Shown here: positions 12,925 to 53,317 of the stretch, one piece after another | Layout: every line of letters begins with the position of its first letter | Position numbering within the stretch: position 1 is the first letter of the stretch | Assembly (NCBI GenBank): GCA_004022145.1 | Contig: RCNU01000003.1 | Length of the DNA stretch: 64,000 bases | Origin: Paecilomyces variotii | Taxonomy: Eukaryota | Direction: 5' to 3' (one strand) | Translations under genes and position numbers: made by a program | Notes under the pieces: generated by a model | What the model saw: only the letters and a program-made list of their open reading frames with translations | What the model was told of the DNA's origin: nothing | Databases searched by the model: none

Positions 12925-14708
12925 GGTTTGTTGACGAGGATTGGTTTGGATACACAGTATAGTTTCGATGTCTCTTTGTCCCGATATATATGTTATGCTA
13001 TATGTGCTCGGCGTCGGACCCCTCTAGTCCTCTATGTTGACGCGTACCAAGTCGAGCTGCAATATGTCGGCGCTCACGGCTTCTGTGGAAGCGAGGTGCA
13101 AACCGCTGCTACTACCCTATACAAACTGGGTAGCAGCTGCAACGAGAAGCCACCTACATCGATCAAGATAGGATCATAGCAGACACGCTGGAACCATGGA
13201 ACGCTCAAGACAGTATTCCAGCGCAGCTCCAGGCAGCAGGGATGTCAGGACAGAGTCGTGGGTATAAATAGCTGATAGATTTCGGTACCCTCTAGTTCTC
13301 TAAGCAATCAAGATTTTATTCCCGCATCAAATGCTTATCCAGTGTCTTTGCTTCCGTGGTCCTAGATCCCAACACAAAACCTAAATAAGGGGTATGGGTA
13401 ATCAAGATCAACAGTATATTATTTAAAGCACATGTTTAGCTTCTGCTTTTGCTTCCGAGATCCTAGAACTCGACAGAATACAATATGGTTACTTGGACTT
13501 GACCTGTAGGTTTCACAGTGCTGAGGAAGCTTGATAACATAACCTATCTGAGAGGGGAGTTTGTGCACACGTCCTGGTATCGGTAGATAAGTAGGATTAG
13601 GTTCTAGAGAAAAGAACTATAAGTATTATTATATAACATCCTTCCGTATAGTTAGCTTTAAAATTTCTGGTTAAGAAATTTTGTGCTCCCGCTGGGGCAC
13701 GACAAGATTTCTCTCAGAATGAGAAACATTCAGCACGGCATGGTCACCATTATGAGGAATGATTTGTGAACCCTCAAGTTCTTGGTAGACAACATTATAC
13801 TGATCCTAAGGTCGTTATTACGCAATTATGGTTACTATTAGACTCTCTACACCACTCCCGGACTATAAAAGGACCACCTCCCAGTGGAGGCATAGACGAG
13901 AAGCTAATTGATTGTATAACGCAAAGGAGAAATATCCTCTTGGTCGCTCGGATTTGACAGTTACTGTATTTAAGGGCGTACATGACTGATCGTAAAAGAT
14001 GAGCCCCAGCGGTTGTGCATAGAAATTGAACCTTGAAATCGGTATCTATCATGCCTAATGTCAAAACCATCATTTACCTTAAGCATCCATCGCTGCTAAA
14101 TGCCAGGTTCTAGGTAGGAAATGCGATATTGTCAATTATGAGTCCATTTACCGCGTGACCAATTTCTTTTCTCCCTTTTCCGATGTCGGCTGATCAGCAT
14201 TGCTACAAATGCAAGATTTTTCCTACGTCCGTATTGCCCGAGAGATCTGCAGCTGTGGATTCTGCACGGGAATAGCTACATATTGTAGATCACGACCATA
14301 AGGAGTAATTCGTGCGAGCTCTATAGATGTGCGAATAATTGACAGTTCGGCGCCTGGACTTTGCCTATGGGGTCCACAGGTCTAGCTTTAAGGTTTGCCC
14401 ACTGGTAACGGTCTATAGGTAAAACGTACGAGCCACATCGATCAATAAAGCATTGAGTTCTCGCTGATTTAATGTGCTAAGCGTTTGGAGGAGACGTTAT
14501 GAACATCTTTATTCGTTGGAATAATGGAGCACCATGTATTAAGCGTATGATAGCTGCCACATGGGGTCAGGGGGCTTGACTCGCTAGGGTTTTAAAACAT
14601 GCAATATATCCATGGCTGTATAAAAGTTACTAGGTCTGCTAATATATGAATGGTATCTCCCGTACATACTGATTGAAAGTCAGCCGACACAACTGTTCTC
14701 TATATACA

Positions 14709-15785
14709 ATGGCTCCTTCTCCCTTTCCTTCCACCCAGACGGCAATCATCGCTGCTGATAGTGCTGGCAGCCTTAAAATCGCCGATGATGTGCCTGTTAT
14801 TGATCTTGAGCCCGATGCAGTGCTGATTCATACTGCCGCATTGGCTCTCAACCCAGTGGACACGAAAATGCTTCATGGTTTTGCCTACCCTGGAGCTATT
14901 CTTGGGTTTGACTTTGCCGGCACTGTGGCCGCTGTTGGCTCTGCGGTGACAAGGCCACTTCAACCTGGTGACCGCGTCTGTGGTAGTGCAGACAGTATGA
15001 ATAGACAGCGACCCAGTGGGGGAGCATTTGCCAAGTATACTTCCTGTCCTGCATCGCTGGTGGTCAAGATCCCGGCCGATATGCCTTTCACTGATGCAGC
15101 AGGGTTGGGAACATCACTGGCCTCTGCAGGCTTGGCACTCTTCCATTCTCTTAAACTGCCGGCTTCACTTGAATACCCTGCCGACAGGCCCATCTATGTG
15201 CTGATCAACGGTGGCAGCACGGCAACGGGAACGATGGCCATCCAGCTCCTCCGAGGGTGTAATCTCCGCCCAATCGTCACCTGCTCCCCTGACCACGTCG
15301 AGTTGGTGACATCTTACGGCGCCGAAAAGGCATTCAACTATCATTCACCGACCTGCGCTCAGGATATTCGAGCCTATACGCGAAACGCCCTGGCTTTCGC
15401 GGTCGACTGCATCACACAACCGTCCACGATGAAGCTTTGCTACGATGCCATTGGGCGTGCCGGCGGCAGATATGTGGCTCTAGATCCTTTCCTGGAGTCG
15501 CAAAATACGCGGAAAGTTGTCAAACCCAACTGGATCCTCGCCACGAGCGTGACGGGCCGGGGCTGCTCGTGGCCAGCTCCCTACGGACGGGATGGAGACC
15601 GCGAGATTCGGGCTTGGGCCGAGGGCTTCTTTTCCACAGTACAGCCGCTCATAGAAGCAGGTCGGATCCGATCCCATCCGGTCAAGATCTGTCCAGGCGG
15701 GCTTCCCGGCATCCTCGAGGGCATCGAGTCTATTCGACGGAAAGAGGTGCGGGGTTTTAAACTGGTGTATCCAATGGAGTGGTGA
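14709..15785 (+). CDS. Trans-acting enoyl reductase (LovC-like, MDR superfamily)
   Basis: ALNPVDTKM, GFDFAGTV, GDRVCG, INGGSTATGTMAIQLL, TCSP, YGAEKAFNY and the C-terminal VRGFKLVY. It sits directly upstream of a PKS-NRPS that lacks an active ER. Confidence 0.92.
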   Translation: MAPSPFPSTQTAIIAADSAGSLKIADDVPVIDLEPDAVLIHTAALALNPVDTKMLHGFAYPGAILGFDFAGTVAAVGSAVTRPLQPGDRVCGSADSMNRQRPSGGAFAKYTSCPASLVVKIPADMPFTDAAGLGTSLASAGLALFHSLKLPASLEYPADRPIYVLINGGSTATGTMAIQLLRGCNLRPIVTCSPDHVELVTSYGAEKAFNYHSPTCAQDIRAYTRNALAFAVDCITQPSTMKLCYDAIGRAGGRYVALDPFLESQNTRKVVKPNWILATSVTGRGCSWPAPYGRDGDREIRAWAEGFFSTVQPLIEAGRIRSHPVKICPGGLPGILEGIESIRRKEVRGFKLVYPMEW

Positions 15786-17297
15786 AGGAGTTCTAGATAT
15801 CTTTTGTGCATAAGAACAATGTCTTCCCTTCCTCCGTCTCGCTTACGTGTCCCGTTAAGGATTGACATTACAACCGGCGGTAATACATATATCTAGCTTG
15901 GCAAGTTTTCATGGTGCAATAATGTTTCTATGATAGACAGTGCAACGGCAGCTTCAGCTTCAGGATCGACAACACTAGGCATAACTCGGTGGCAGTTCCG
16001 AGGATAAGCATTCTGAAGCTTTTTAGTTTCCCCCATTCTAACTGGGGTATCGTCATCATGCTCGCTTAATGTGTACCTGCATGATATCCTAGTGGGGAAG
16101 AAGCCCGGCCGCTAGGCAAGGGCTCGAATGTAGAATTCTGATTATCTGATAATCTAATCTGATCATCATGCAACACGGCCGTTACGCACTTAGGCGCACC
16201 ATGTATCCACGTCTATCATGTCGGCTGATACACATTTCCAAAGATCGATTCTCCCGCCTCTCTCCCTTTTTTTTTTCTTTTTTCTTCCATTAAGCAATGA
16301 CCTCTACATTGCGTGGTCCAGGACAGGGACAGGGGCTTTTGCATTGATTTTGCGCTTAAAGTAGTATATATAGCTCTCTAGGGTAAAATGGCTACCTGTA
16401 AGGTTGAATGAATCCAAGGAAATCGGTTGGTAAATTAGGATTCACCTTGTCGATCCTACTAAATATTGGGATCCCTGAAATGTAATCTAAACCGAAGGGC
16501 GCGCAAGATGTGGACACATGTTCATAGAGTGTTTATTGACACATCAAGATAACCCCACCTTACTACCATCCCGGCTGCCTTTATTTCCTGCCTGATGTTT
16601 TTGTTTCGTACCTCGCACTATTCTCATCTTATACCACTTCCTTTCCTGTCTGTAGTCATTTGCCAAGATAGATAGTGGGAAATGGTTAGCCAAACCTTAA
16701 CAAAGAAGCGGAGAATGGGTCCATAATAATCTTATAACGAACCGTCTTTTTTGTCATTAGCATACTCACAACTGCAGATCACATACAAAGAACATAACAA
16801 AGAACATGCGTTGCATGTGCGTATTCTAAAATAATGCCACCACAGCGCTTAATGCAAGTAACACACCAATTACTATTTTTTTTTCTCATGTTCCTTTTAG
16901 CAGTAAGTCTGTAGTAAGTTTTGGAATAGATGTTCCAGTAATTGGGGACTCATGCAGGTCCATAGGTAGTCTTCTTTATAGAATGAGCGCTGGTTAGCAA
17001 AATCACCGAGCTTCTATTCAAGAGTTAAACGGCCATGCCTTGCTTTCCTAGGAGAGTTAGATTCGCTAGTACATAGTCGAAAGACAAAGGAAGGCATTGG
17101 CCCGAAATACACTCGGGAAGGGTCTTACTCTGATGAGCACAAAAGCTAGAAAGTGACCCATATGTACGAATACTTTATCTTCCCTAATATTCGTTTTATC
17201 CCGCATTGGTTCTGTTTGAGGATTTATCTCGTCCATATGTCCCAAAGAACACCGCTGCTTGCTGAGACTTGTATTATATGGTTGCTTTTGTCATAGA

Positions 17298-20200
17298 ATG
17301 ACTCCTCCGCGTGAGCCTATTGCCATCATCGGGAGCGGCTGCCGACTTCCAGGAGATGCAAGCTCTCCATCAAAGCTATGGGAGCTTCTCCGAGACCCCC
17401 GAGACGTGTCGCGAAAAATCGACCGGTTCAACGCCCAAGGCTTCTACCATCATGATGGCCATTATCACGGTGCTAGCAACGTGACTGATGCTTATCTATT
17501 ATCAGAGGATCCTCGGGCATTCGATGCTCAGTTCTTTGGGATACAAGCTGGTGAAGCTGACGCGATCGATCCTCAGCAACGATTGCTACTTGAGACGGTA
17601 TACGAGTCTTTAGAGTCAGCCGGACTACCATTGGAGGAGATGCGAGGTTCCACTACAGCCGTGTATGTCGGCGTTATGTGCGATGACTATGGTGGAATCG
17701 TGTACCACGATTGAGAAGCAATCCCTACCTACGCGGCAACTGGCATTGCCCGTAGTATATTATCGAATCGTGTGTCCTACGTGTTCGACTGGCATGGTCC
17801 ATCCATGACAATTGATACAGCTTGCTCCTCCAGTCTAGTGGCAGTCCATCAAGCAGTTCAAGTCTTGCGAGAGGGAACTTCAAAAGTGGCCGTGGCCGCT
17901 GGCGCGAATCTGATATTCAGCCCAAGTAAATTATCTCCCCCGTGATGGTTATCTCTTCGCGCTGACACAGAAATAAGACATGTTCATTGCCGAGACAAAC
18001 CTCAATATGCTTTCCGCGACCGGAAAGTCGCAAATGTGGGATGCCAATGCCAACGGTTACGCCCGTGGTGAGGGAACCGCCGCCGTGGTTATGAAGCTCC
18101 TTAGTACTGCTGTCGCGGATGGCGATTGCATCGAATGTATCATCCGCGAGACGGGGGTGAATCAAGATGGTCATACCACAGGAATTACCATGCCGAGTCA
18201 AGAGGCTCAGACGAAACTAATACAAGAAACATATACACGTGCCTGCCTTGACTTGCGCAATCCTGCTGACCGTTGTCAGTATTTCGAGGCTCATGGCACT
18301 GGCACAAAGGCAGGCGATGGTGTTGAATCCAAGGCCATCTACAATGCTTTTTTCCAGACGGGACATAGCAATATCTCAGACGAGAGACTTTTTGTCGGGT
18401 CTATCAAGACCATCGTTGGCCACACGGAAGGGACAGCCGGTCTAGCTGGCGTCTTGAAAGCGTCCCTCGCTGTTCAACATGGTGTCATTCCGCCTAACCT
18501 TCATTTCAAAGAGCTCAACCCGGAGATTGCGCCGTATTACGAGAAGCTGCGGATTCCGACTGAACCGCAAGAATGGCCACCACTACCAACACATGCGGTG
18601 CGTCGGGTCAGTGTCAATAGCTTTGGTTTCGGCGGGACCAACGCTCACGCTATCATCGAATGCTATGATCCAGAGTATCATGGCTGTAATACAGTATTGC
18701 CACAGCTTCAACCTGGAGGCTCTTCTGTCAATACATTGCCGTTGACTTTGTCTGCCACTTCGGAAAAGTCATTATCAAACCTGATCTCTCGGTATCTGGA
18801 GCATATCAAGAATAACCCTGACGAAGATTTGCGTCGTCTCTCTTGGACACTGCATTATCGACGTTCACTTTTTCCTTTCCGGGCCTCGTTCGCGGCTCCA
18901 TCAACAGATTCACTTATCCCTAAGCTACAGTCCGCTCTAGATGATAAGGGGGACTTTTTGACACGAAGAACACCGGAAAGGAAGTCCCTTCTAGGCGTGT
19001 TCACCGGCCAAGGAGCTCAGTGGGCAACTATGGGACGTGATCTCATCACGACATCTCCATTCGCTGAACAAGTCGTTGAGAGGCTGGAACAGGCCCTGCT
19101 GGGACTTCCAGCAGCAGATAGGCCCCGGTGGTCTCTTAGAGAACAGATGCTAGCGTCTACGGCCGAGTCGCGAGTTTCTGAAGGAGAGCTATCGCAGCCG
19201 CTCTGCACAGCTATACAGGTAATTATTGTCGACATGTTGAAGCAAGCTGATATTACCTTTGACGCTGTTGTCGGTCATTCCAGCGGCGAGATAGGCGCTG
19301 CGTACGCTGCAGGATTTATCAATGCTACCGACGCTATTCGTATAGCGTACTACCGTGGCCGATATGCACATCTAGCCCATGGACCGCAGGGTCAGCGAGG
19401 GGGGATGCTAGCGGCCGGAACAACTCTGGAGGATATTCAGGAGCTATGCGGAGTCCCTGCGTTTGAAGGTCGCGTCGTTATGGCCGCCTGCAACTCAGCC
19501 TCCAGTGTAACACTATCTGGAGATATGGATGCAATCGATGAGGTGAAAGAAGTGTTAGAAGATGAACATAAATTCAACCGGAAGCTTAAGGTGGACACAG
19601 CCTATCATTCCCATCACATGGTCCCTTGCTCTGTGCCGTACCAACAGTCGTTAGATGCATGTCGAATCGATATACAAGACCCAAACGGCCGCTGCCGATG
19701 GTATTCCTCGGTGCACAATGGCAAGAGGATGGATGTATGCGATGAGCTGAAGCATCAGTATTGGGTTAAGAACATGGTCAATCCAGTCTTATTTTCCCAG
19801 GCATTGGAGGCCGCCTTGACGCATGGTCCTACACCGACAATGGTCATTGAGGTTGGGCCTCACCCAGCGCTGAAAGGTCCAGCAACGTCAGTGATTGAAG
19901 AAATCCTTGGATTGAACCTCCCATATGTAGGAACTCTTGTCAGAGGCCAGGACGGCATCGATGCCCTAGCTTCAACCGTGGGATCTGTCTGCCGTTACTT
20001 TGGTCGATCTGCTGTCGACTTACGATCCTATGACCGGCTATTCGGCCACGGGGAGGATCCCTTGTTCCTCCGAGGCTTGCCATCCTATCCATGGGATCAT
20101 GACCGTTCATTTTGGTTCGAGTCCCGAGAGTCCAGATCGCATCGTCTGCGCAATAACCCTGCTCACCCTTTGCTTGGGGTGCGGTTATCCACCAGTAACG

Positions 20201-23200
20201 ACCGTGAATACCGTTGGCGCAACTACCTGAAGCCAGATGAGATTTCTTGGCTACATGGCCACAAGATCCAGGGTCAAACACTGTTCCCCGCCGCTGGTTT
20301 TCTGGTCATGGCGGTTGAAGCTGCTCGCTTCGTTGCCGGACATAGATCACAGCCTCTTAACATTGTCGAAATATCCAATTTCAACATCCATCGTGCGTTG
20401 GGATTCTACGACGATGAAAAAGGGGTCGAGATTCTTGCCACACTGTCCAATGTCACCATTAATTCTGCTGATGATGATGCGACCGCTGTTAGTGCAGACT
20501 TCACTTGTGACACCTGTCCCCAGAAAGACAATGGATCTTTCATCTCAGTTGCAAATGGCAGGATTAAATTGTTGCTAGGAGAGTCTTCGTCATCGACATT
20601 GATTGATCGCCCCGATATGGATTCGAGTATGATTGACGTCGACGTAAATATGTTCTATTCCTCTCTTCAGTCACTTGGATACAACTACGCGGGACTGTTT
20701 CGGAGTATCACTTCTTTACGGAGGACCACTGATGCAGCAATGGGAGAGATCCTCACGGCGGAAACCGTGAATGGAACAGAATATGCTTCTGAAGACTTTC
20801 TTCTGCATCCTGCTGCTCTCGATGTTGCCTTTCAAGCCATCTTTGCCGCTGTCAGTTATCCTGGAGACGGCGCTCTTTGGACGCTGCATATCCCCACCAC
20901 CATCCGGCGTGTAACGATCAATCCCGCTGGGTGCCTGCGAAATGGTGGTCTGAATGTTCCACTAGCCTTTTCAGCAAACTCCCAGATATCCCCCGGTGGA
21001 CAAATCTCCGGCGATGTGGATATCTTCCCGCACAATGGCCAGAACGCCTTCTGTCAGGTAGAAGGCCTGGAGGTCACGCCTCTCTCTCCTTCCACAGAGA
21101 AAGACGATCGCCAAATGTTTGCAGAGAGCCTGCAGTATATTGCTTCGCCAGACGCCGATATCGTGTTCAGACCGATCCTTTCCACAAGTGAGGACCAGAT
21201 AGAAGCGATACAGGTTGAACGATTAGCACTATACTACCTGCGCAAATTTCTCGGATCAACTGTAAACAAGCCTGGGTTCCGGATCTGGGCCCAGCGCGCA
21301 GTTGACATAATAGCGTCAGGAGAACATCCGACCTGCAGGCAGCAATGGCTTTTGGATACATGGGACGATGTAGAATCAGCATTAGGAGCCATCCGCCCAA
21401 GCTCCATCTATCAAAGTGATGTTAGGAGGATCAAGGCACTCGGCGAGACCTTTGAGCCAACAGGGGATGCTGAAATCTCCACTGAAATAAACAGGCTACG
21501 CGATTTCTATGAAGCTTCCTTCGGTGTATCACAATCGCGGCAATATTTGGCTTCCCTTACTTTCCAGATAACTCGACGTTACCCTCAAACGTCCATTCTG
21601 GAGCTGCAAACGGTAAATGGTAGCGCCACGAGGACAATCATCAACCATATTGGCAACTCTTTCTCGGCATATACCTGCACCGACTCATTTGATACGAGCT
21701 TCGACGCTCTACATGAAGAGTTTGGGTCTCTAGACCGTACCTTATTCTCGACTAAGAAGATTAACATTGATGAGGACCTTCAAGCACAAGGTTTCTCTGG
21801 TGGCTCATACGACCTCATAATTGCACCTAATGGTATACATGGCGTTCAGGAGTATTCCCAGGCTTTGAGAAATCTTCGCGCTCTTCTGAGACCAGGCGGC
21901 TACTTGCTGGTGCTGCAAGTAACCAACCCAGATACGTTGAGGGTTGGTCTCACCGTCGGTGCCTTGGATAGGTTGCCGGAGAGCTTTCACAGTCATGGGA
22001 CACCTTTCCTTGATTTGAGTGAATGGGACACACTCCTTCGAACCACTGGATTCTCCGGTGTTGACACTGCAACACCAGATGGCCCCGTTCCCTTTTCAGT
22101 CTTTGTTACCCAGGCAGTCGACACCCAGATCAATACCATGCGTCAGCCAATGGGCAATAGCAGTATTGTGATCGACCATCTTCTGATAATTGGAGGCCAC
22201 CGGTTCCCCGTATCGCGCACCGTACGAGAACTCCAAGAATTGCTGGGGCCATTCTGTAAAAGCATTACTACCATCAAGTCCATGGATGAGCTTGATGCTG
22301 CCACCCTCGTGTCGAGGCCACTTGTCCTCAGCGTGACGGAGCTGGATTCCCCGTTCTTTCTCTCTTTGACGCGACGTAAGTTCCAGGCATTGCAAAAGCT
22401 CTTCGATCGTTGCAAAACTGTGCTGTGGGCCGTTGAAGGTGCCAATGGGGAGCTTCCCCATGGTAACATGATGAAAGGCCTCGTGCGTTGCCTTCTCCCA
22501 GAGATGCCACATATCTTCGCACAGATCTTTAATTTCCAGCCATCCACCGCTGTCAAGGATCGGTCGCGAATACTAGCTCAAGCTATTTTACACCTACATA
22601 TTGCTAGTACCTGGAGAGACGGCTACGGCCCTCTTTGGAGCACCGAGCGCGAACTTACAATCGATGATGGCAAAGTTTATATCACAAGATATATACCGAA
22701 CGAGTTCCTAAATCGTGGATACAACGCGATTAGGCGACGCGTTACTGCCGAGGCCTCACTTGAGGATCGGACTATTGCAGTCATCACAGACAAGGAATCA
22801 TATGCCCTGCAACAATACCGCGTTCCGCCTGTCCCGAGATATATGCTTCTTCAGGGGGGACTCTGCACTGTCAAGATTCATTACTCTACTCTATGCTCGC
22901 TGAAGGTCGGAAATTTAGGCTACTTTTACTTGTGCTCTGGTATCGACCGAGAGTCTAATTCGTCTATCCTCATCCTCTCGGAGCAACACCAGTCTGTTCT
23001 GACAGTACCACGGACTCGCGTAGTTGCTTGCAATCTCCCGAGGAACCATGAACGCAATATGCTTATTTCTGTTGCCGGTGTACTTCTCGCTAATTCTATC
23101 ACAGAGAAGAATGGCGCTAACAGTACCATCATCGTATATGAACCACCTCCACTAATAGCCTATTTTGTTGCTCGAAAGGCTACCCAGAAAGGCATACATC

Positions 23201-26200
23201 CAGTTTTTACGACAACAAGACGGGATGATGCCGTTCATAATAACTGGACATATATCCATCCCCACACACCAGACCGCCACTTGAGAAAACTTGCTTCTAG
23301 CAAGGTATCTGCATTCATTTCCTGTTCCGAAGATGCTGTGAAATCTCGCATTACCGACCATTTGCCCATTGGAGTCCATGGACTCTCAATCACTGACTTC
23401 CTCAAGTCCTGTTCTTACGTCTATCCAGGACTCATGGAAAAAAGTATCCATGAAGCCCTTCTTGACGCTTACAATGAAGCATCTTCGGTTAATATCTCGG
23501 ACGTGTCTCTTGACACCCTCGAAGACATTGCGCTGCACGATGTGGCTAAGCAACCTGTAACAGCGGGTCGCAATCTTCAAGCGGTTAACTGGACAAGCGC
23601 GGCACCTGTTCTGGCACGAGTAACTTCGGCGATGGAAGAAGTCACCTTCAGCGACTGCAAAACATATTTCTTGATCGGGATGACAGGAAACCTGGGATTG
23701 TCGACATGCCTTTATATGATCTCGCGCGGTGCCAAGTACTTTGCTCTAGCAAGTCGGAACCCCAAGGTTGATCAGCAATGGTTGGATCATGTTAGCTTGA
23801 CTTATGGGGTGATAGTAAATGTTTTCTCATTGTAATATTCCCTTTTAACAGTTGTGTCCAGTGGGCTAATTCGTGCAGGGATATCACGAGTCGGGAATCA
23901 TTGATAGAAGTGTACCAAACAATCTCTCGCACTATGCCTCCCATAGGAGGGGTGACGAACGCTGCCTTGATCATGCGCGATGGTGCCTTCATGGACATGG
24001 ACTCTGACGACATGAACCAGGCGTTGCAGCCCAAGGTAGACGGAAGCATTTACCTTGACGAGCTATTCTCGGATCATACCGATCTTGAATTCTTTGTTCT
24101 CTTTTCCTCTCTTGTCTATATCACTGGTAACGCGGGCCAGGTTGCTTACGCAGCTGGAAATGCCTTTATGGTAAGCCTGATACACGGTAGGCGTCAGCGC
24201 GGCTTGGTTGGTAGCGTCATGAACCTGTCGGGAATCAAGGGTGTGGGATATATCACCCGGACTGACCATGGAATCTTGAATCGCCTCGATATTTTGGGAT
24301 ACGGAGTCATGTCTGAACGGGACTTCTTATACTTCTTTGCCGAGGCTATCCTAGCTGGACCGCCAAATTCCGGTCGCAACCCGGAGATTTCAGCTGGTCT
24401 ACGATTCTGCGACCCTCACAAGGACGCTGCCCCTCCAGCTTGGATCGAGGATCCAAAGTTCAGTCACTACCGAGTTCATCATAACCAGAATGATGGTCAA
24501 GAAGGCGGACATCAAGTTACGTCTGTTAAGAATCGACTTTTAGGCGCCCAATCTGAGAAGGAGGTCTTTGATATCATCCTTGGTTAGTGATTAACAGGCC
24601 AGATGACCATGTGCCACGACTGACCATTTTCACTACAGATGCTTTATTGGCAATGCTACACAGGAAACTGAGATTACAACCAGAGAACGCTGTGCCTGCA
24701 GATGTGGCCATCGTTGAACTCGGTGTGGATTCTTTGGTGGCGGTTGAGATGCGTTCATGGTTCACCAACGAGTTCAACCTGGATATTCCCATCATCAAGA
24801 TACTTGGAGGCGCTACGGTCTCAGCTCTCATCTCTGACGCTATTCCAGAGCTCTCCCATGAGACTATCCCAAATCTCGCCAAGGATGCGCCTGCTAAGCC
24901 AGCCGATGCTATACCGCCATCCATGTACAAGAGCTCAGACTCAGGGTCAGGCTCTTTCGGAGAATCAGAGTCGCACTTGGACTCTAATTCTACCCCTGAT
25001 GAGTCAACTGATACAACGGCGAGTATACCTGACGTGGAAGAGAAGACTTCGCCCCTGGTCTTTCAGAGAAAGGAGAAGATGTCTTACGGATCATCACGCT
25101 TCTGGTTCTTGCGGCAATACCTGGATGACAAAACCTGCTTCAATATTGTTTTTCGGGCCCGGATTACCGGCAAGATCAATATTAAGAAATTCGAGGAGGT
25201 CGTCCGCCAGATAGGCAGCCGCCATGAGGCCTTCCGGACAGCCTTTTACGCTGATAAGGAGCGTCAGGATGAGCCAACCCAGGGAGTTATGGTAGAGTCG
25301 CGGTTGCAGCTTGAAGTGAACAAGATTACTCACGAAGACGAGGCTCTTATTGTTACTAATGACTTGCTCGATTACAGCTTTGACATTGAAGGTGGTGAGA
25401 CGATACGAATGCTGATGTTGTCCTTGTCACCAGAAGACCACATTTTAGTTTTTGGGATGCATCATATTGCTATTGATGGATTCAGCTTCAACGTTCTCCT
25501 CACTGAGATTGATATGCTCTACCGGGACCAGCCTTTGCCCATTATTCGTCGACAGTTCACTGATTTTGCTGTACAGCAGCGGCGTGAGGTTGAGAATGGC
25601 CAGACGGATAAGGAACGAGCCTTCTGGCGGAATATGTATCCTGACATCCCTGAACCTCTTCCTCTTTTCCCACTCGCCAACGTTAGCTGCCGAAAGCCAG
25701 TGATGAGATATGAACATGAAGAAGCGTCAATAATCTTAGACCGTGCTACTGCGGAGAGCATCCGGACAAGGTGTCGTGAAAACAGATCCACTATCTTCCA
25801 CTTTTTCCTGGCTACTTTACAGGTCCTGCTCTTCCGGTACCTGGACGTAGAAGATTTGTGCATCGGAATTGCAGACGCCAATCGGCACGATGTCAACACA
25901 CTGACAACGGTCGGATTCTTGCTGAACTTGCTTCCATTACGCTTCAATGCTCCAAATGGAGCTTTTGACAGCGTGCTTGCTGCGGCCAGGAATCTGGTCT
26001 ACTCCTGTTTGGAGCATTCAAGGTTCCCCTTTGATGTTCTAATCGAGGATCTCAATATACCGCGCTCGTCTACCTACAGTCCCCTATTCCAGGTTCTCTT
26101 GGACTACCGACAGTTCGCCGTCAAAAGTCCGCCGATGCTGAATTGTCGGGCCGAGGGTGAACGTATCATGGGCCGCACGGCATACGACTTACTGCTGGAT

Positions 26201-29200
26201 ATCACAGACTTCTCTGGCTCAGATATCTCTATCAAGCTCCAGACACAGAAATCATTGTATTCACGTCAGCACACAGAAACCCTTCTTCGGAGCTATGTGC
26301 ACCTGATCCACTTCTTTGCGAATGACTTCAAGGCAGAGACTAGCAACGCTCCTCTGTTTTCAGAGAATGAAAAATGGAAGTCTATCCGCCATGGACGAGG
26401 TAAGTTAACCCTCTGGTATTTAAAAATAAATTTACGAAATATGCTGATATCTGTCAAATTTCAGGGCCAACGTTTACTTCAGAATGGCCAGAAACTTTGT
26501 CTCACCGAATCGACGATATATCCACTCAATACCCCGAGGACGTCGCCCTTCGGGATGGCTTGGGTGTCGTCATGACATACCGCGATATGTCATTGAAAAT
26601 GGACGCGATCATTGATCAGCTGCAGCAGGCCAGGATAGAGCCAGGGAGCAGGATCGCAGTATTCCAGGAGCCATCCGCTCTGTGGATATGCTCTCTGCTG
26701 GCTATCTGGAAGGTTGGGGGTATATACCTGCCCTTGGACAGTCGCAATAGCCTATCCCGACTGGCATCCATTGTGACCAACTGCAAGCCAGATGCCGTGC
26801 TCTGCACTACGGATACACTCGCTCATGCTCCTTCTCTCGGGTTTAACGGATCTATGATCGACGTCCGAACAGCTGCGCGGGCCCCATTGTTAGCTCGTCA
26901 TACGAATAAAGCTGCTGGATCTTTCACGGCCGTCATCCTTTTCACCAGCGGATCTACCGGGACACCAAAAGGAATTGAAATCAGCCACTCCAGCCTGAGA
27001 AATCTGTTCGAAGGTTATCAGAAGACCGGCGATCTCAGCAGACATACTGTCTTGCAGCAGAGCGCTTACAGTTTTGACCTGTCACTAGATCAGATCTTGA
27101 CAGGCCTCACGGGTGGCGGTTCTATCTATGTTGCTTCTGCTGAGCAGCGTTTGGATCCCCGCGAGTTGGCGCGAATCATTGCCCAGGAGCATATCACCAG
27201 TACCACGGCTACTCCCTCTGAATACTCCAGCTGGATCACGTACGGTAAACCTATGTTGCTGTCAGCCAGAAAGTGGACTCGGGCGATAATTGCCGGTGAA
27301 CGCTGGACAAGTGCTTTACGAAAAGCCTTTCAGGATTTACATCTACCTGGTCTCCGTCTGCTGAGCTGTTACGGACCTGCGGAAACAACCATCTACTGCA
27401 CAAAGATGGACTTGCCATCAGACGATACGGGCATTATCCCCGTTGGTTGTCCAATCCCCAACAGTTCTATTTACGTGGTAGATAACCAGTTGAACGTACT
27501 CCCTCCGGGAGTTGTGGGAGAGATCGTGGTTGGAGGCGCCGGGGTTGCAGTGGGATATTTCGACAATGCGGAGCTGACCAACGATAAGTTCTTCACTGAC
27601 CCTCATGCGTCATCAGAATTCGTTGCAGCAGGCTGGACCAAAATATATAGGACTGGCGACATCGGTTATTTGCAGGAGGACGGCTCCCTGGTCTTTGTCT
27701 GTCGGGTCGACGGCGACACACAGGTCAAACTGCGCGGTATACGAATCGAGCTGGAGGATATTGAGAACACAATCATCAAGGCATCGGATGGTGCAATTTC
27801 TCAAGCTGTAGTATCTGTTCGCGGTGAAGGCAACGAGTCTCGGATTCTGCTTGCATTCGTCGAATTCGCTCCAGGACAGTCACTCAGTCAGGAGGAACTC
27901 TCTCATCTGCTTGGCCGTCTTTCTCTTCCACAGTACATGATCCCAACGATGCTGATTCCACTTGATGATGGAATCCCTCTAACTCCCCACAAGAAGGTTC
28001 ATCGACGGGCAATCGACAACATGCCTCTGCCTCAGACACATCACATTGACGGTGAACAGAACTGTCTGAACGCCACGGAGGTCGCTCTCAGAGAAATATG
28101 GGTAGAAATGCTTCCAAAGGAAATCACTGCCGCAGTACCTATCGACAAAAAGACCGACTTTTTCTACGTAGGAGGAAATTCTCTTCTGTCCGTTCGGCTA
28201 CAGGCCCGCATCCGAGATATTTTTGGTGTTTTCCTGCCCTTGGTAGATCTGATCGAATCAAGTACGCTGGAAGACATCGCTATCCATATTAACAATCGGT
28301 TAAATGAACATGCAATCGATTGGGACGCAGAGATTGCCGCGGACGAGGATATCCTATCGATCATTCCGGGAGAAGCGACGCAGAACAGTGGTCAGCCACA
28401 AACTGTTCTCCTGACAGGTGCTTCTGGCTTTGTTGGAAGCTCTATCCTGCAGAAATTGATTTCGGATGATCGAGTATCGCGCATCCATTGTGTTGCCGTA
28501 CGGGAGGGCGCTGCACGGGAGAAAATGCGCTCAATGACATCGGAAACCACCAAGGTCATTATCCACGAGGGAAATTTGGCATCTCCTGCTCTCGGCCTAC
28601 CTGAAAATACTTTTGCGTTACTGTCCAAAGAAACGGACGTCATCATTCACTCGGGCGCGAACCGTTCTTTCTGGGGCCGTTATGACTCCCTCCGCGCCGT
28701 AAACGTGCTTTCAACCAAGGAACTCGTTCGATTGGCCGCTTATGCTCGCCGTGATCATGGAAAGGCCATTCCTATTCACTTCTTGTCAACAAGCAGTAGC
28801 TGCTATCGTGACGCGAACTCCAGGCCCCCTACGGACGGCTCCATGGGTTATGTGGCATCGAAATGGGTTAGTGAGAGATACTTGGAGAATGCAGCCGCCC
28901 GGCACTTGGGATTACCAGTGTACATTCATCGAATGGCTCCTCCGGCATCGAGTGAGGGCCTAGAGGGACACAGAAACGACGATGATAAAAACACCGAGAA
29001 GGAACGCATTTTCCAGGAATTCATCTCGATCATCTCCCGGATAAAGCTCATTCCATCATCAGACACGTGGGGCGGCCAGTGGGATCTGATTCCCGTACGA
29101 CAACTCGCAGAAGATATCGTGGAAGGAGCAGTGGTATCGCAGATATATAGCACTGCCAATTCTGCCGCTAGTCAGCAGAATCCACTTGTTCGCTACCAAA

Positions 29201-29412
29201 TGCACTTTAGCACTGTGCGGATGACAATGGATGAGGTGGTCCAGGCATTGGAGGAGGCGATACCAATTAGACAAAAGGGGTACCAGGAAATACCGGCCCA
29301 TATCTGGGTTGGGAAAGCGAAATCGGCAGGGTTTTCTTATCATTTTGCGTCGATGGATATGTTTCTCCTAAAGGACCAGAACGGAGATGTTGTCGGTGAA
29401 TTGCGTCGTTGA
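17298..29412 (+). CDS. Iterative hybrid PKS-NRPS (KS-AT-DH-degenerate MT-ER0-KR-ACP-C-A-T-R), 5 exons, interrupted by an in-frame TGA at 17712-17714 (possible pseudogene or sequence error)
   Basis: [147 protein letters not shown]. Frame-consistent introns at 17926-17977, 23832-23878, 24583-24638 and 26400-26464 give about 3,965 codons. Confidence 0.95.
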
Positions 29413-29962
29413 TGGACCATCCCCGCTAGCACAGAACCCTACTTCGTTACGTCGGCATATAAATATATGTGTGTATAAAGTCACTATTATTACATGATAG
29501 TACATTCACTTCAAAGCCACAGAACATAGAAACACTGTGAATATCTGACTTTGCCATGGCAATATACTAGCTAAACTATATAATAATTACCGTGTGGTAA
29601 CCACTCCAATACAAGGTCCTGCCCCTCACGTCAGAAAAAGCCAAATATACGAATAGAATGACCACAATGCCACTTGCGAATCACCGATATCCCTATCCCG
29701 TTGATGATGGGCTCCAACATAAGCACTAATGCAACGCGCTGCGTTGCTGTCTTTGGGTTAGCGCCGTCTCAGTGGCTGAGTCTGACATGATCAACAAAAT
29801 TACTGCCTGCATCGAGACATCGCAATCGTCGTTCACAAGCGCCCCCTTATCTCTTCAATAATGAAGGAGTGTTCCCTAGAAACCCCGTTTGATACTTAGA
29901 TGAGCTCCTCGTGGCCTGTATCACGGGTGTGTACAACTAGGTAGGCAGGCAGGCTATCCACG

Positions 29963-31883
29963 ATGGTGTACTGCGGTAAGCCATCTAAAGGATGTGGAGA
30001 ATGCCGCGCGAGAAAGATAGGAGTGAGTATGCGCCAAGTGACAGTCAACCCTAATGGGTTGAGCCGTAGCCCGTATTTCTCGCAATGCTTACTGACTTGG
30101 GCTTCCAGTGCGACCAGACCAGACCGGCATGTTTGCAGTGCACTAGGGCTAATCGTGCCTGTCCTGGGTATCGAGATGAGCCTTCGCTCCTGTTTCGTGA
30201 TGAGACCCAGGATGTGGTGCGAAAGGCGAAAGAAACAAAATTATCGAAAGCGGCGTCGCATCTATCAAAGAAAAAACGCACTTCATGCTCTTTCGAGAAT
30301 GACGCAAACTCGGATAAGCGGGTTATACTTCGACCTGCCACTGCTGTCGAGTCGCAGCGGTACAACTACGATTGTGACCCGTTAAGGCTCCGATGGATCT
30401 CGGCGCCTATCACGGAACAGGCCACAAATTTCTTCTTCGCTAATTTTGCGTGGCTTGCGGCGTCCCTGATGCAGAAGGGTGTGCTTTTCGCCCCTAATCT
30501 AGACGATTCTTTAGGGGGAAAGGCTTTAATGGCTGGTGTTGCATCAATCGGCTCCGCGACACTATCGAATATTCATAACGCCCCTGAATTCCATGTATCA
30601 GCAAGAGAGAACTATATAGCTGCTTTGCGTCTGATCAAAGGAGCACTTGCGGACACTGGCCAAGCGAAAACAGATTTGACGTTCACCGCTTCGATTCTTC
30701 TAGGCATATTTGAGGTGAGATATATCCCTCGCATCTACTTCCCAGAATCTTACATTGAAGATAGCTTGTCACTTGCACGAATCCTGCCACGGCAGATAAT
30801 TGGACTGGCCACGTCAGAGGCGCTATGGCACTCTTCCAGTTACGAGGCGCCAGCCGGCTTGAGGATGAATCAGGAATGCGCATGTTCCATCAGCTAAGAA
30901 ACCAAATTGTGCGTCATCATAGGGATAGGGTTAATAATCACTCTTACTAACATTTCCCGCAGCTCATCTCCTGTCTTCAAAGGAAAACGCGTGTGCCCGC
31001 CTTAGTGCTAGAGTTGTCGAGGAAAGCTGCTTTCTTAAAAGCGCCTGGGACTACTTATTTTGATCGCCTCGCAGAAACGGTCGCCAAATTATGTAATTTA
31101 CGCGCTGATATCGCGTCCAAGTCAATAACCAATAATTCGGAGATCTTCTCAGCGGCCTGCTCTATCGAATGCGAGCTGTTAGCTTGGGTTAACAGCCTTC
31201 CTCCCAATTGGGCTTATAGTACGAACCAGGCCGCCGAAGGAAACGATAAACTGAGAACTGGGTGGAATGGGCTATACCCATATAATGGCCGATATCATGT
31301 CTACGAGGATTTGTGGATATGTAGCGCCTGGAACCAGTGCCGTGCTGCTCGAATTTTTGTCAACGAGATTATTCTGACACGTCTGTGGCTGATGCACAGT
31401 GAATCTGCCACGGTTTCCGTTTCAAGCGAATTCAGAGTTCAGTGTGGTAATATTCGGAGTACCTTGAGGCAACTGGCAGCGGATGTTTGCTACAGCGTTC
31501 CCTATTGTTGTGCGAGCGTCAATGGGGTCGATTTCGTTGATATCGGAGATGTTTCTGTCTCAAAGTCTACTGTTGGAGGATTCACAGTACTCTGGGCTCT
31601 GTTCTTGGCTGGCTCGGTCGAGGGCTGTGATAGTGTGCTTGGTGAGTGGTGTATTGAGTGCCTTCGCTGGATCGGGCATACACTCGGGATTGGACTGGCA
31701 CTGGCTATGATTGACATCCTTCGCATGAACACCGGGATTCTTCAATGGATGGATAGCATGGATCGAGAAACCCACTCAACCGGAACCGAAACGGCGAACG
31801 GAAACGATATACACGACCTCTCCACGAAAACCAATGACCCCTGGTGGGATCGGGAAATGGCTCATCAAGATACACAGTCATGA
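29963..31883 (+). CDS. Zn(II)2Cys6 transcription factor (4 exons; introns 30023-30108, 30715-30764, 30909-30962), probable cluster regulator
   Basis: Spliced CGECRARKIGCDQTRPACLQCTRANRACPGY binuclear cluster followed by a fungal TF middle region. It lies immediately downstream of the PKS-NRPS. Confidence 0.9.
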
Positions 31884-32634
31884 ATTAGTCGCTAAACCCT
31901 ATATTGCACACAAATCGAGCCCAGATATTACCGGGAAGAGTCTTTTGAGGATTATCATGATTAGCCAGCCTTTGCACAATGGGTGACGACTTGCGCTATT
32001 GTTGAGAGGCTATTGCTTCTAATGCAATGCCACTTTGAGTGAGACTTACAGAGCTATTCCTCTGAACCTCGTCTTCCCTTCAAATAAGACGGCGTTGATC
32101 ACACCTAGGCGCACTGGAGCCGAATTATAGTCAGACTGTAGAACACTGCATTAGATATCATGGCTGCGCCTGAACACGAGAAAAACCCGAGCCCGTTGAT
32201 TGGTGGATTGGAGATACCGAGGCACACTTCGCTGGGCTGTGCAAGTATGAGCTGCAGCATCCGGCGGTGCCCCTACTTTATTTCACAAACAACTCGACAG
32301 CAGTTTAGAAGATGAGGCTCAATTGGAGTTCAGAAGTTTCACACGTCGTATATTAGCGTCTACGGACCGCTGTGTTTGTGCCATGAATGGACCTTGGTTC
32401 AACCAAATGCGGCTGCGGGGGAGGATTGTAAGGCATCCTTGAAAACTAGGAGCCTAACAAAGAATGAAGTATATGTGTCGAGGAAGCCTTTCATCCATGA
32501 TGGGATATTTAAATGAACTTGAAAGAATCGATAATTACTGCTTGCGATGGACTCATTGAGTGGTAACTTCAGCTTGACTTCATCTTGACTTTCAAAACAC
32601 AGCGGCACATTCCCTCCGTTGCCTCCTTCCTGTT

Positions 32635-50812: not shown

Positions 50813-53317
50813 CTAATCAACGATCCCCGGAGGCAGGAGCGAGACATAATCCAACGGAGCTGGCTCAACGCCATCAGGTGTACCGATAATCTTCAGCGTA
50901 TCCCCTTTGTTGACCTTCACCCCACGGAAAGTGATGCGGGTAGCCGAATGACCGTCGAGGTAGATGGATGGAGTATGAGAAAGGATATCCTCGTTATTAC
51001 CCACCCATTTCCCAATCAAGCGATTGTTGAGGTAGACTTGCCAATGGGACTTGCCTCCGTAGAGATCATAGTAATTCACCGCCAAGTCATACGTACCAGA
51101 AGGATACTGTAGCTTGGTAGTGGCTGTGCCAGTAGTTGAATTGGAGGATGTGACTATGGCAGTCCAGTTTGAGGCTGCCTCGAACGGGCTGACGGCGTAA
51201 GTCTTGTATCCATTCAATGTCATGCTCTCGGCCTCCACGCGCCAAGGATGGTTACCAACGCGATTAGCCTCATCTGGGATCCCTGTCATGTTCCAGTAGA
51301 AATCATTGATGGCATCTCTCCAGACCATCGAATGGCCGGATTGGTAGGTAAGCTTTGTGAGGACGTCGTTGTATCGCTCCTCGTCGATTTTGCCCTTCAG
51401 TGACTCCCAGGTTTGGAGGAACGTCTGTGCGGTTTCAGCACCGGCATAGTGAGCGTCGTAAAAATGCTGTATGACTGTTTCCCCAGAGTGGAGGCGATGC
51501 GTCCAGTTCACATGGTGAAACCACAGGAGCAGGTTATCGGGAGTAGTGTCAATATTTTCATACATTGCTGCAATCTCAGGAGGATATTGTCCGGAATACC
51601 CTGTGCCATTGCTTACTGTGCGATCCATTCCGACGGACAAGTGGTCAGCGCGTGTCCACTGTCCCCAGCCATTGTTATCCTGGGTAGCGGGATTCGGTCC
51701 GAAATGCGTATACAATATATCGGTCAGGGTCTGGATGCCGAGGTTTCCACTGTAGTTCTCATAGGCGGGCCATGAGTCCATTGACATCTTGCTGATACCA
51801 GCGATAACGCTGGGGTCAAAACCGAAAGTGAGACGAATCCAATCTTGGAGGATATTTTCAACGTTGGCGGTGGGATTCCATGCTAGTCGACCATAGGCAT
51901 ACAAGTTGGACATAGCCAAGTGACTGCCTAGCCATGTTGTATTCGTACCGACATTGACTACAGCTGCCCATCCTCCCAGAGGTCGGTCAAAGCGCTTGCC
52001 AGATATAATATCGCGCACCACGGACTCCTTCCCATCGACTCGGAGGTCGAAATCAAGGACAGTCTTCCATAGAGGCGGCAAATAAAGTAAGTGACTTTGC
52101 TGTCCAAGGTACTCTTGTGTGACCTCCAGTTCTATGGCCGTGTTTGTGTTCGGCAAGTGCGCAAACAGCGGCGAGGTGGGCTCACGGACTTGGAAATCAA
52201 TGGGCCCATACTTTATCTGGACGACGACATTACTGTCGAATTGTCCATCCAGAGGGGCAAAGAATTGAACCGCAGCTTTGGCGCGGTCCGCCTTCCAATC
52301 AGACTCGTTGAGTTGGTTGTAGACAAACGCGCGGAACATAACTATGCCGCCGTAGTTCTTCACAGCCTTTGCAAACAGGTTGGCTCCCTGGGCAAGTGTC
52401 CGGTTGTATGTTAACGGTCCAGGCTCACCCTCAGAATCTGCCTTGACGAGATAGCCGGCCATATCAGGAATTCGCTGGTAAATTTCGTCTGTCACATTCT
52501 GCCACCACGCAATAACAGAGCTGTCAAGGGGATCGAAGGTAGGCAAACCACCAAGAGTTTGAGGAGATGCAAAGTTCAGTGAGATTCCTAGTCGGACACC
52601 GTAGGGTCGGAAGGCGTCCGCAATCCTTCCCAGACCTTCGATATTTTCAGGGGTGAGGGTTGTCGCGTTGGCGTTGACATTGTTGACAACAACAGCATTG
52701 AGGCCGATGGAAGCCAACAGACGTGCATACTGAGAGGCGCGAGTCAAATCTTCAACGATGGTGCCATTGGCGAAAAATATAGACTGGCCACCGTAACCAC
52801 GCTCAATGCTTCCATCCATATTGTCCCATTGATTCACCCATCGTACGGGAGCGCTGGGGTTGGTCGCATAGGAAACTTGCGAGAAGTTCCCCTGGGCAAG
52901 CATAGACAGATATTCGAATGCTCCATAGAGAGCACCACGATCGTTCTGACCCAGGATCTGTACACCTCCCCCTTTTGTGCTGAGCCAAAAGCCGTCCTCA
53001 ACAAGCTCAGGGATTCCATCGATACCGCCGCAAATATCCGAATATTGGGCAATTGTACCAACGACCACGGCGGATGGTTGGCAGCTGCCATGCTGGATCT
53101 CAACATGCTCTCCTAGGATATTCTTGAAGCCATTCCGCAGTTCCTGTCCTGCCACATACACTGGACTGCTAGCAGTGTCGTTTAGAATGACGATGGAAGA
53201 CGGACGAGTATTGTTCGAGTGGTTGCCAGAAGGCAAGGGCGCGTAACGCAACCAACCTGCCAGGCCATTGTCTGCAACGGCGAAGCCGAGAGATGCAAGC
53301 AACAAAAGACCGCGCAT
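50813..53317 (-). CDS. aguA: Alpha-glucuronidase, glycoside hydrolase family 67 (intronless, secreted)
   Basis: Signal peptide, GWLRYAP, RWVNQWDNMDGSIERGYGG, NNVNA, VKADSEGEPGP, QIKYGPIDFQVREP, ELEVTQEYLGQQ, LLWFHHV. 834 aa. Confidence 0.95.
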   Translation of the reverse strand: MRGLLLLASLGFAVADNGLAGWLRYAPLPSGNHSNNTRPSSIVILNDTASSPVYVAGQELRNGFKNILGEHVEIQHGSCQPSAVVVGTIAQYSDICGGIDGIPELVEDGFWLSTKGGGVQILGQNDRGALYGAFEYLSMLAQGNFSQVSYATNPSAPVRWVNQWDNMDGSIERGYGGQSIFFANGTIVEDLTRASQYARLLASIGLNAVVVNNVNANATTLTPENIEGLGRIADAFRPYGVRLGISLNFASPQTLGGLPTFDPLDSSVIAWWQNVTDEIYQRIPDMAGYLVKADSEGEPGPLTYNRTLAQGANLFAKAVKNYGGIVMFRAFVYNQLNESDWKADRAKAAVQFFAPLDGQFDSNVVVQIKYGPIDFQVREPTSPLFAHLPNTNTAIELEVTQEYLGQQSHLLYLPPLWKTVLDFDLRVDGKESVVRDIISGKRFDRPLGGWAAVVNVGTNTTWLGSHLAMSNLYAYGRLAWNPTANVENILQDWIRLTFGFDPSVIAGISKMSMDSWPAYENYSGNLGIQTLTDILYTHFGPNPATQDNNGWGQWTRADHLSVGMDRTVSNGTGYSGQYPPEIAAMYENIDTTPDNLLLWFHHVNWTHRLHSGETVIQHFYDAHYAGAETAQTFLQTWESLKGKIDEERYNDVLTKLTYQSGHSMVWRDAINDFYWNMTGIPDEANRVGNHPWRVEAESMTLNGYKTYAVSPFEAASNWTAIVTSSNSTTGTATTKLQYPSGTYDLAVNYYDLYGGKSHWQVYLNNRLIGKWVGNNEDILSHTPSIYLDGHSATRITFRGVKVNKGDTLKIIGTPDGVEPAPLDYVSLLPPGIVD

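Follow-up and report, generated by a model that had tools for sequence, protein, structure and literature searches.

A segregating nonsense allele, probably of single and recent origin, in the ketosynthase domain of a PKS-NRPS gene of Paecilomyces variotii

The PKS-NRPS gene in the analysed stretch of Paecilomyces variotii DNA (64,000 nucleotides of contig RCNU01000003.1, hereafter the window, to which all coordinates refer) is interrupted by one in-frame TGA at codon 139, and the alleles compared indicate that this stop is a derived, minority nonsense allele segregating in the species. We consider it very probable that one base of a serine codon was changed in a single lineage of P. variotii, on one occasion and at a fairly recent date.

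The premature stop (17712..17714, + strand) is in frame with the ATG at 17298, and most other isolates encode serine at this codon. The gene spans 17298..29412 on the + strand and was delineated from Pfam matches, from motifs and by fitting a gene model to P0280, an intact allele from the databases, which gave five exons (17298-17925, 17978-23831, 23879-24582, 24639-26399 and 26465-29412) separated by introns at 17926-17977, 23832-23878, 24583-24638 and 26400-26464. The spliced model comprises 3,964 codons, equal in length to P0280, with one internal stop and no frameshifts. The preliminary description of this DNA had reported a single TGA in the KS domain, lying before the catalytic cysteine, with no other stop or frameshift in the gene, and all of this was borne out; the peptide it had quoted as reading straight through in one frame also agrees with the translation. 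The Pfam ketoacyl-synt profile matched in register on both sides of the stop (profile positions 2-131 and 143-207), and the KS aligned to those of LovB and PsoA without a gap at the site. The catalytic Cys176 (DTAC motif) is encoded at 17823..17825 (+), 3' of the stop. The truncated product (17298..17714, +) therefore comprises 138 aa of the KS N-terminus and lacks the catalytic Cys/His/His residues; it is present in NCBI, nr and Logan as P0243 (3 contigs). The first in-frame methionine 3' of the stop is codon 170, and re-initiation there would cost most of the N-terminal KS. Intron 1 uses the less common acceptor AAG, at a junction that agrees with the homologues. Many NCBI models split the gene at 20494-20616 into a protein of 1,053 aa and another of about 2,850 aa; as the frame of the window is open across this interval, the split is probably a gene-caller artefact, and automatic gene models at the locus are misleading in this respect.

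Apart from the stop, a single reading frame encodes the domain order KS-AT-DH-degenerate MT-KR-ACP-C-A-T-R. Catalytic motifs are kept in KS, AT, DH, KR, ACP, C, A and R, the last retaining its nucleotide-binding and Tyr-x3-Lys motifs, and the MT has lost its glycine-rich SAM motif. The order is that of the fungal iterative PKS-NRPSs that work with a trans-acting ER and have a LovB/PsoA-like KS, with the difference that the SAM motif of the MT is degenerate here. From these motifs and from what such synthetases generally do, the intact enzyme would be expected to build a polyketide chain that is partly reduced and unmethylated, to join one amino acid to it and to release the conjugate reductively.

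Upstream of the gene, an intact zinc-type dehydrogenase (14709..15785, +; Pfam ADH_N and ADH_zinc_N) may be the trans-acting enoyl reductase partner, judging from its position and from known fungal PKS-NRPS clusters. Its Lys109 marks the stop haplotype and was confined to window-type sequence, the residue being Glu in nine other alleles. Downstream lies a probable Zn2Cys6 transcription factor (29963..31883, +), apparently intact, whose Cys motif was recognised by eye across the first intron and whose two exon ORFs gave no Pfam match. Further candidate members of the cluster, located 11-16 kb upstream of the PKS-NRPS, are a FAD/BBE oxidase (AA7; 4674..6515, -) as a possible tailoring gene, a short-chain reductase (3249-4380, +) and a methyltransferase-like gene (1719-3035, +) with a Pfam match below cut-off. 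The earlier claim that the partners are intact holds for the putative trans-ER and the FAD oxidase, both of which match intact alleles, and for the transcription factor by eye only. At the edge of the window, a short open frame (2-262, -) that runs off its end has a hydrophobic leader and a repeated motif ending WCTPYCIP, and it resembles a repeat-containing secreted peptide precursor. The flanking genes outside the cluster include a vWA-domain protein (32.8-33.8 kb) and a GH67 alpha-glucuronidase (50816-53317, -); by eye only, an APC4-like gene (38.6-41.7 kb) and an importin-beta-like gene (43.1-45.8 kb) were also recognised.

Database cluster members of several window proteins carry the source name Paecilomyces variotii. 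In the cluster of the exon-1 ORF, all four members of which were read, Ser139 was found on 21 contigs (P0123 on 16, P0244 on 4 and P0245 on 1) and the stop form P0243 on 3, these being counts of contigs and not of independent isolates, drawn from Logan and NCBI sets that may overlap. The cluster of the long protein added seven NCBI models with Ser139 on 18 contigs (among the 15 members listed of 35), and a further model, P0275 (3 contigs), begins 3' of the stop and shares the haplotype residues of the window. The comparison with other isolates that had been proposed earlier thus returned serine in most and the stop in a minority. As the P. lecythidis orthologue that was checked (P0297) also has serine at the site, the change can be polarised and the stop taken as derived. 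A stop was found in the aligned KS segment at none of 80 related loci, 6 of which have an insertion near the site, and exact-pattern and protein scans of metagenome contigs returned no conspecific locus, the best match being 71% identical. Across 285 homologues the residue at position 139 is variable (Leu 67, Val 36, Ile 35, Pro 30, Trp 26, Ser 22, and others). Two further variants were encountered among the alleles. The commonest Logan allele with Ser139, P0123, has proline at residue 59 (about 17472), a state that occurs in 1 of the 285 homologues, namely P0123 itself, and that may be damaging; and one Logan contig of 2,406 bases (P0419, P0421) carries a one-base frameshift in the KR exon at ~24297, possibly a second independent null or else an assembly error.

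Assembled contigs, as distinct from raw reads, of four of the 24 listed sequencing runs (X3, X4, X5 and X15) were compared with the window over 14000-32500. The TGA was carried by X3 and X4, which are the two of these four runs that are readable at the site. X3 (depth 36), which may be related to the source of the window, covered the interval in one contig with 4 differences in 18,501 bases, none of them at the stop, and X5 differed from the window at 42 positions over the same interval. X4 (depth 16), which belongs to another study, showed no differences over 14000-20353 and 117 over 20335-32500; it is a different genome with the same stop, and X3 and X4 cannot both be the source of the window. 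X4 carries the stop haplotype joined to a divergent NRPS haplotype: except for 22269, its listed differences start at 26796, with 36 of them falling within 26796-28117, and, of the 16 amino-acid changes listed for it, 10 are shared with one or more of the three NCBI alleles compared. This pattern suggests a crossover inside the PKS-NRPS in the X4 lineage, in a natural or a laboratory cross. At 22269, the window has a synonymous base unlike all four runs, either a private variant or an error of the window. The allele is thus common to several isolates and occurs also on a recombinant haplotype, and the preliminary wording, by which the cluster would be silenced "in this strain", was too narrow.

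The source of the mutation was considered from the same comparisons. The serine allele was read at the protein level; its codon would be TCA, the only serine codon one base away from TGA, so that the change would be a C-to-G transversion (TCA to TGA). Generation of the stop by RIP was rejected, as reaching TGA from a serine codon needs a transversion and RIP in P. variotii produces C-to-T and G-to-A changes (PMC6300479); the region has a GC content of 45-52%. The small divergence of the window from X3, set against that from X5, marks the stop lineage as shallow, and the very recent nonsense mutation proposed earlier fits both this and the serine as source residue. The remainder of the gene and its partners would still be intact because, as we propose, there has been too little time for further decay. 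In the carriers, translation would end after 138 residues, before any catalytic residue, leaving a dead fragment, and nonsense-mediated decay would probably degrade the mRNA, in which about 11.5 kb follow the stop. The carriers would accordingly produce neither the megasynthase nor its metabolite, a loss that is probably neutral or nearly so.

Null alleles of this kind have been reported in other fungi. In Aspergillus fumigatus, nonsense or frameshift variants were described in 23 of 33 clusters, every strain having one or more (PMC5711037), and those clusters share with the present one a derived null of the backbone gene segregating in a subset of strains, ancestral functional alleles and recombination within the locus; the species is another one, and the cluster studied here is an orphan for which neither a product nor a transcript was found. 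In Ascochyta, nonsense alleles of the PKS gene pksAC abolish the production of ascochitine (PMC6763771). Here, too, a single nonsense change stands in a PKS gene that is otherwise complete, whereas there the change is consistent within each taxon and the loss of the product was shown, and in P. variotii a minority of the alleles of a single species carries it. The stop allele is another instance of this known pattern in fungal clusters and represents ordinary variation. The allele itself was not found in the published work consulted, supplementary variant tables and strain papers being further places that could list it.

The loss might also have been favoured by selection, if lacking the metabolite were beneficial in some niche so that nulls recur and persist, a reading that is compatible with the nonsense mechanism and that we regard as unlikely. 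The sharing of the stop by several isolates, including the recombinant background of X4, would agree with it, as would the KR-exon frameshift and the Pro59 of the commonest Logan serine allele described above. However, the frequency of the stop allele is low, a single short contig, perhaps misassembled, is the source of the second null, and most such cluster losses are treated as presumably neutral in the A. fumigatus study (PMC5711037).

Conditional rescue of the gene, in which UGA139 would be turned into tryptophan by stage-specific A-to-I editing or by readthrough, for example in the sexual stage, and a working PKS-NRPS would result, appears very unlikely. The site itself might permit it: tryptophan occurs there in 26 of the 285 homologues and at 11 of the 80 loci, and since many residues are tolerated, a readthrough product with another residue could be a working enzyme. 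P. variotii is crossable (PMC6300479), fungal editing favours hairpin loops (PMC11156358), and, in four of the six window sizes folded, the prediction places the A of the UGA in a hairpin loop, with an unpaired probability of 0.92; the same was true, however, of 108-182 of 500 control adenosines (22-36%). The case resembles the stop-correction editing of Fusarium graminearum in that the gene is intact but for an in-frame stop, at a site where tryptophan is tolerated (PMC11156358). It differs in that the codon is UGA, with G at -1, and not UAG; that the stop is polymorphic and not fixed; that the ancestral residue is serine, where editing would yield tryptophan; and that the fungus is a Eurotiomycete. 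Fungal editing strongly favours U at -1 and corrects stops by changing UAG to UGG, a context absent here, and in the cleistothecia of A. nidulans, a member of the same class, no genome-wide editing was found, according to the same review (PMC11156358). A minority allele, with no counterpart at the 80 related loci, is moreover not the conserved stop that such a mechanism would lead one to expect. The contigs of the RNA run X15 cross coding, intronic and intergenic DNA, passing through introns 1 and 4 without gaps and showing no splice joints, and so give evidence of neither expression nor editing. As for readthrough, TGA-GAA is not known to be a leaky context. If rescue did occur, a Eurotiomycete would be correcting a stop in a biosynthetic gene, and at a codon other than UAG.

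The stop could lie in an unrecognised intron only with negligible probability. As many as 126 frame-keeping GT/GC..AG pairs (40-400 nt) span it, and the preliminary statement that the GTATGT at 17663 has no frame-keeping acceptor proved wrong, the nearest being the TAG ending at 17755, which would give an intron of 93 nt. Its conclusion that this donor does not mark an intron nevertheless stands, as there is no branch-site match and 31 conserved KS residues would be deleted; the other listed pairs with a GT donor also had no branch-site match and each removes at least 18 codons of the KS core, and the models of the serine allele and the solved structures of LovB and PsoA are colinear across the site. 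Hardly any weight can be given either to the sequencing or assembly error that the preliminary description had entertained: the base at 22269 attests that private errors or variants exist in the window, but the same TGA stands in contigs assembled independently for two runs, each from its own study, that differ from each other elsewhere.

A recent nonsense mutation in a serine codon is thus the reading we retain, and it bears on a cluster to which no product could be assigned by relationship. The nearest relatives of the PKS-NRPS, in P. lecythidis (80%) and in Pleurostoma, Aspergillus niger/tubingensis, Penicillium and Beauveria/Cordyceps (50-53%), carry no product names, and the accessible portions of published work on P. 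variotii PKS-NRPS clusters and on variotin biosynthesis name no product for this cluster. The orphan enzyme thus has relatives at 50-53% across Aspergillus, Penicillium and Beauveria/Cordyceps. Variotin has a methyl branch. It was set aside as the product, as the in-line MT is apparently dead; the separate methyltransferase-like gene 14 kb upstream would, however, speak the other way. Isolates with the stop and isolates with serine constitute a natural knockout pair for this orphan PKS-NRPS, and a comparison of their metabolites could name its product.
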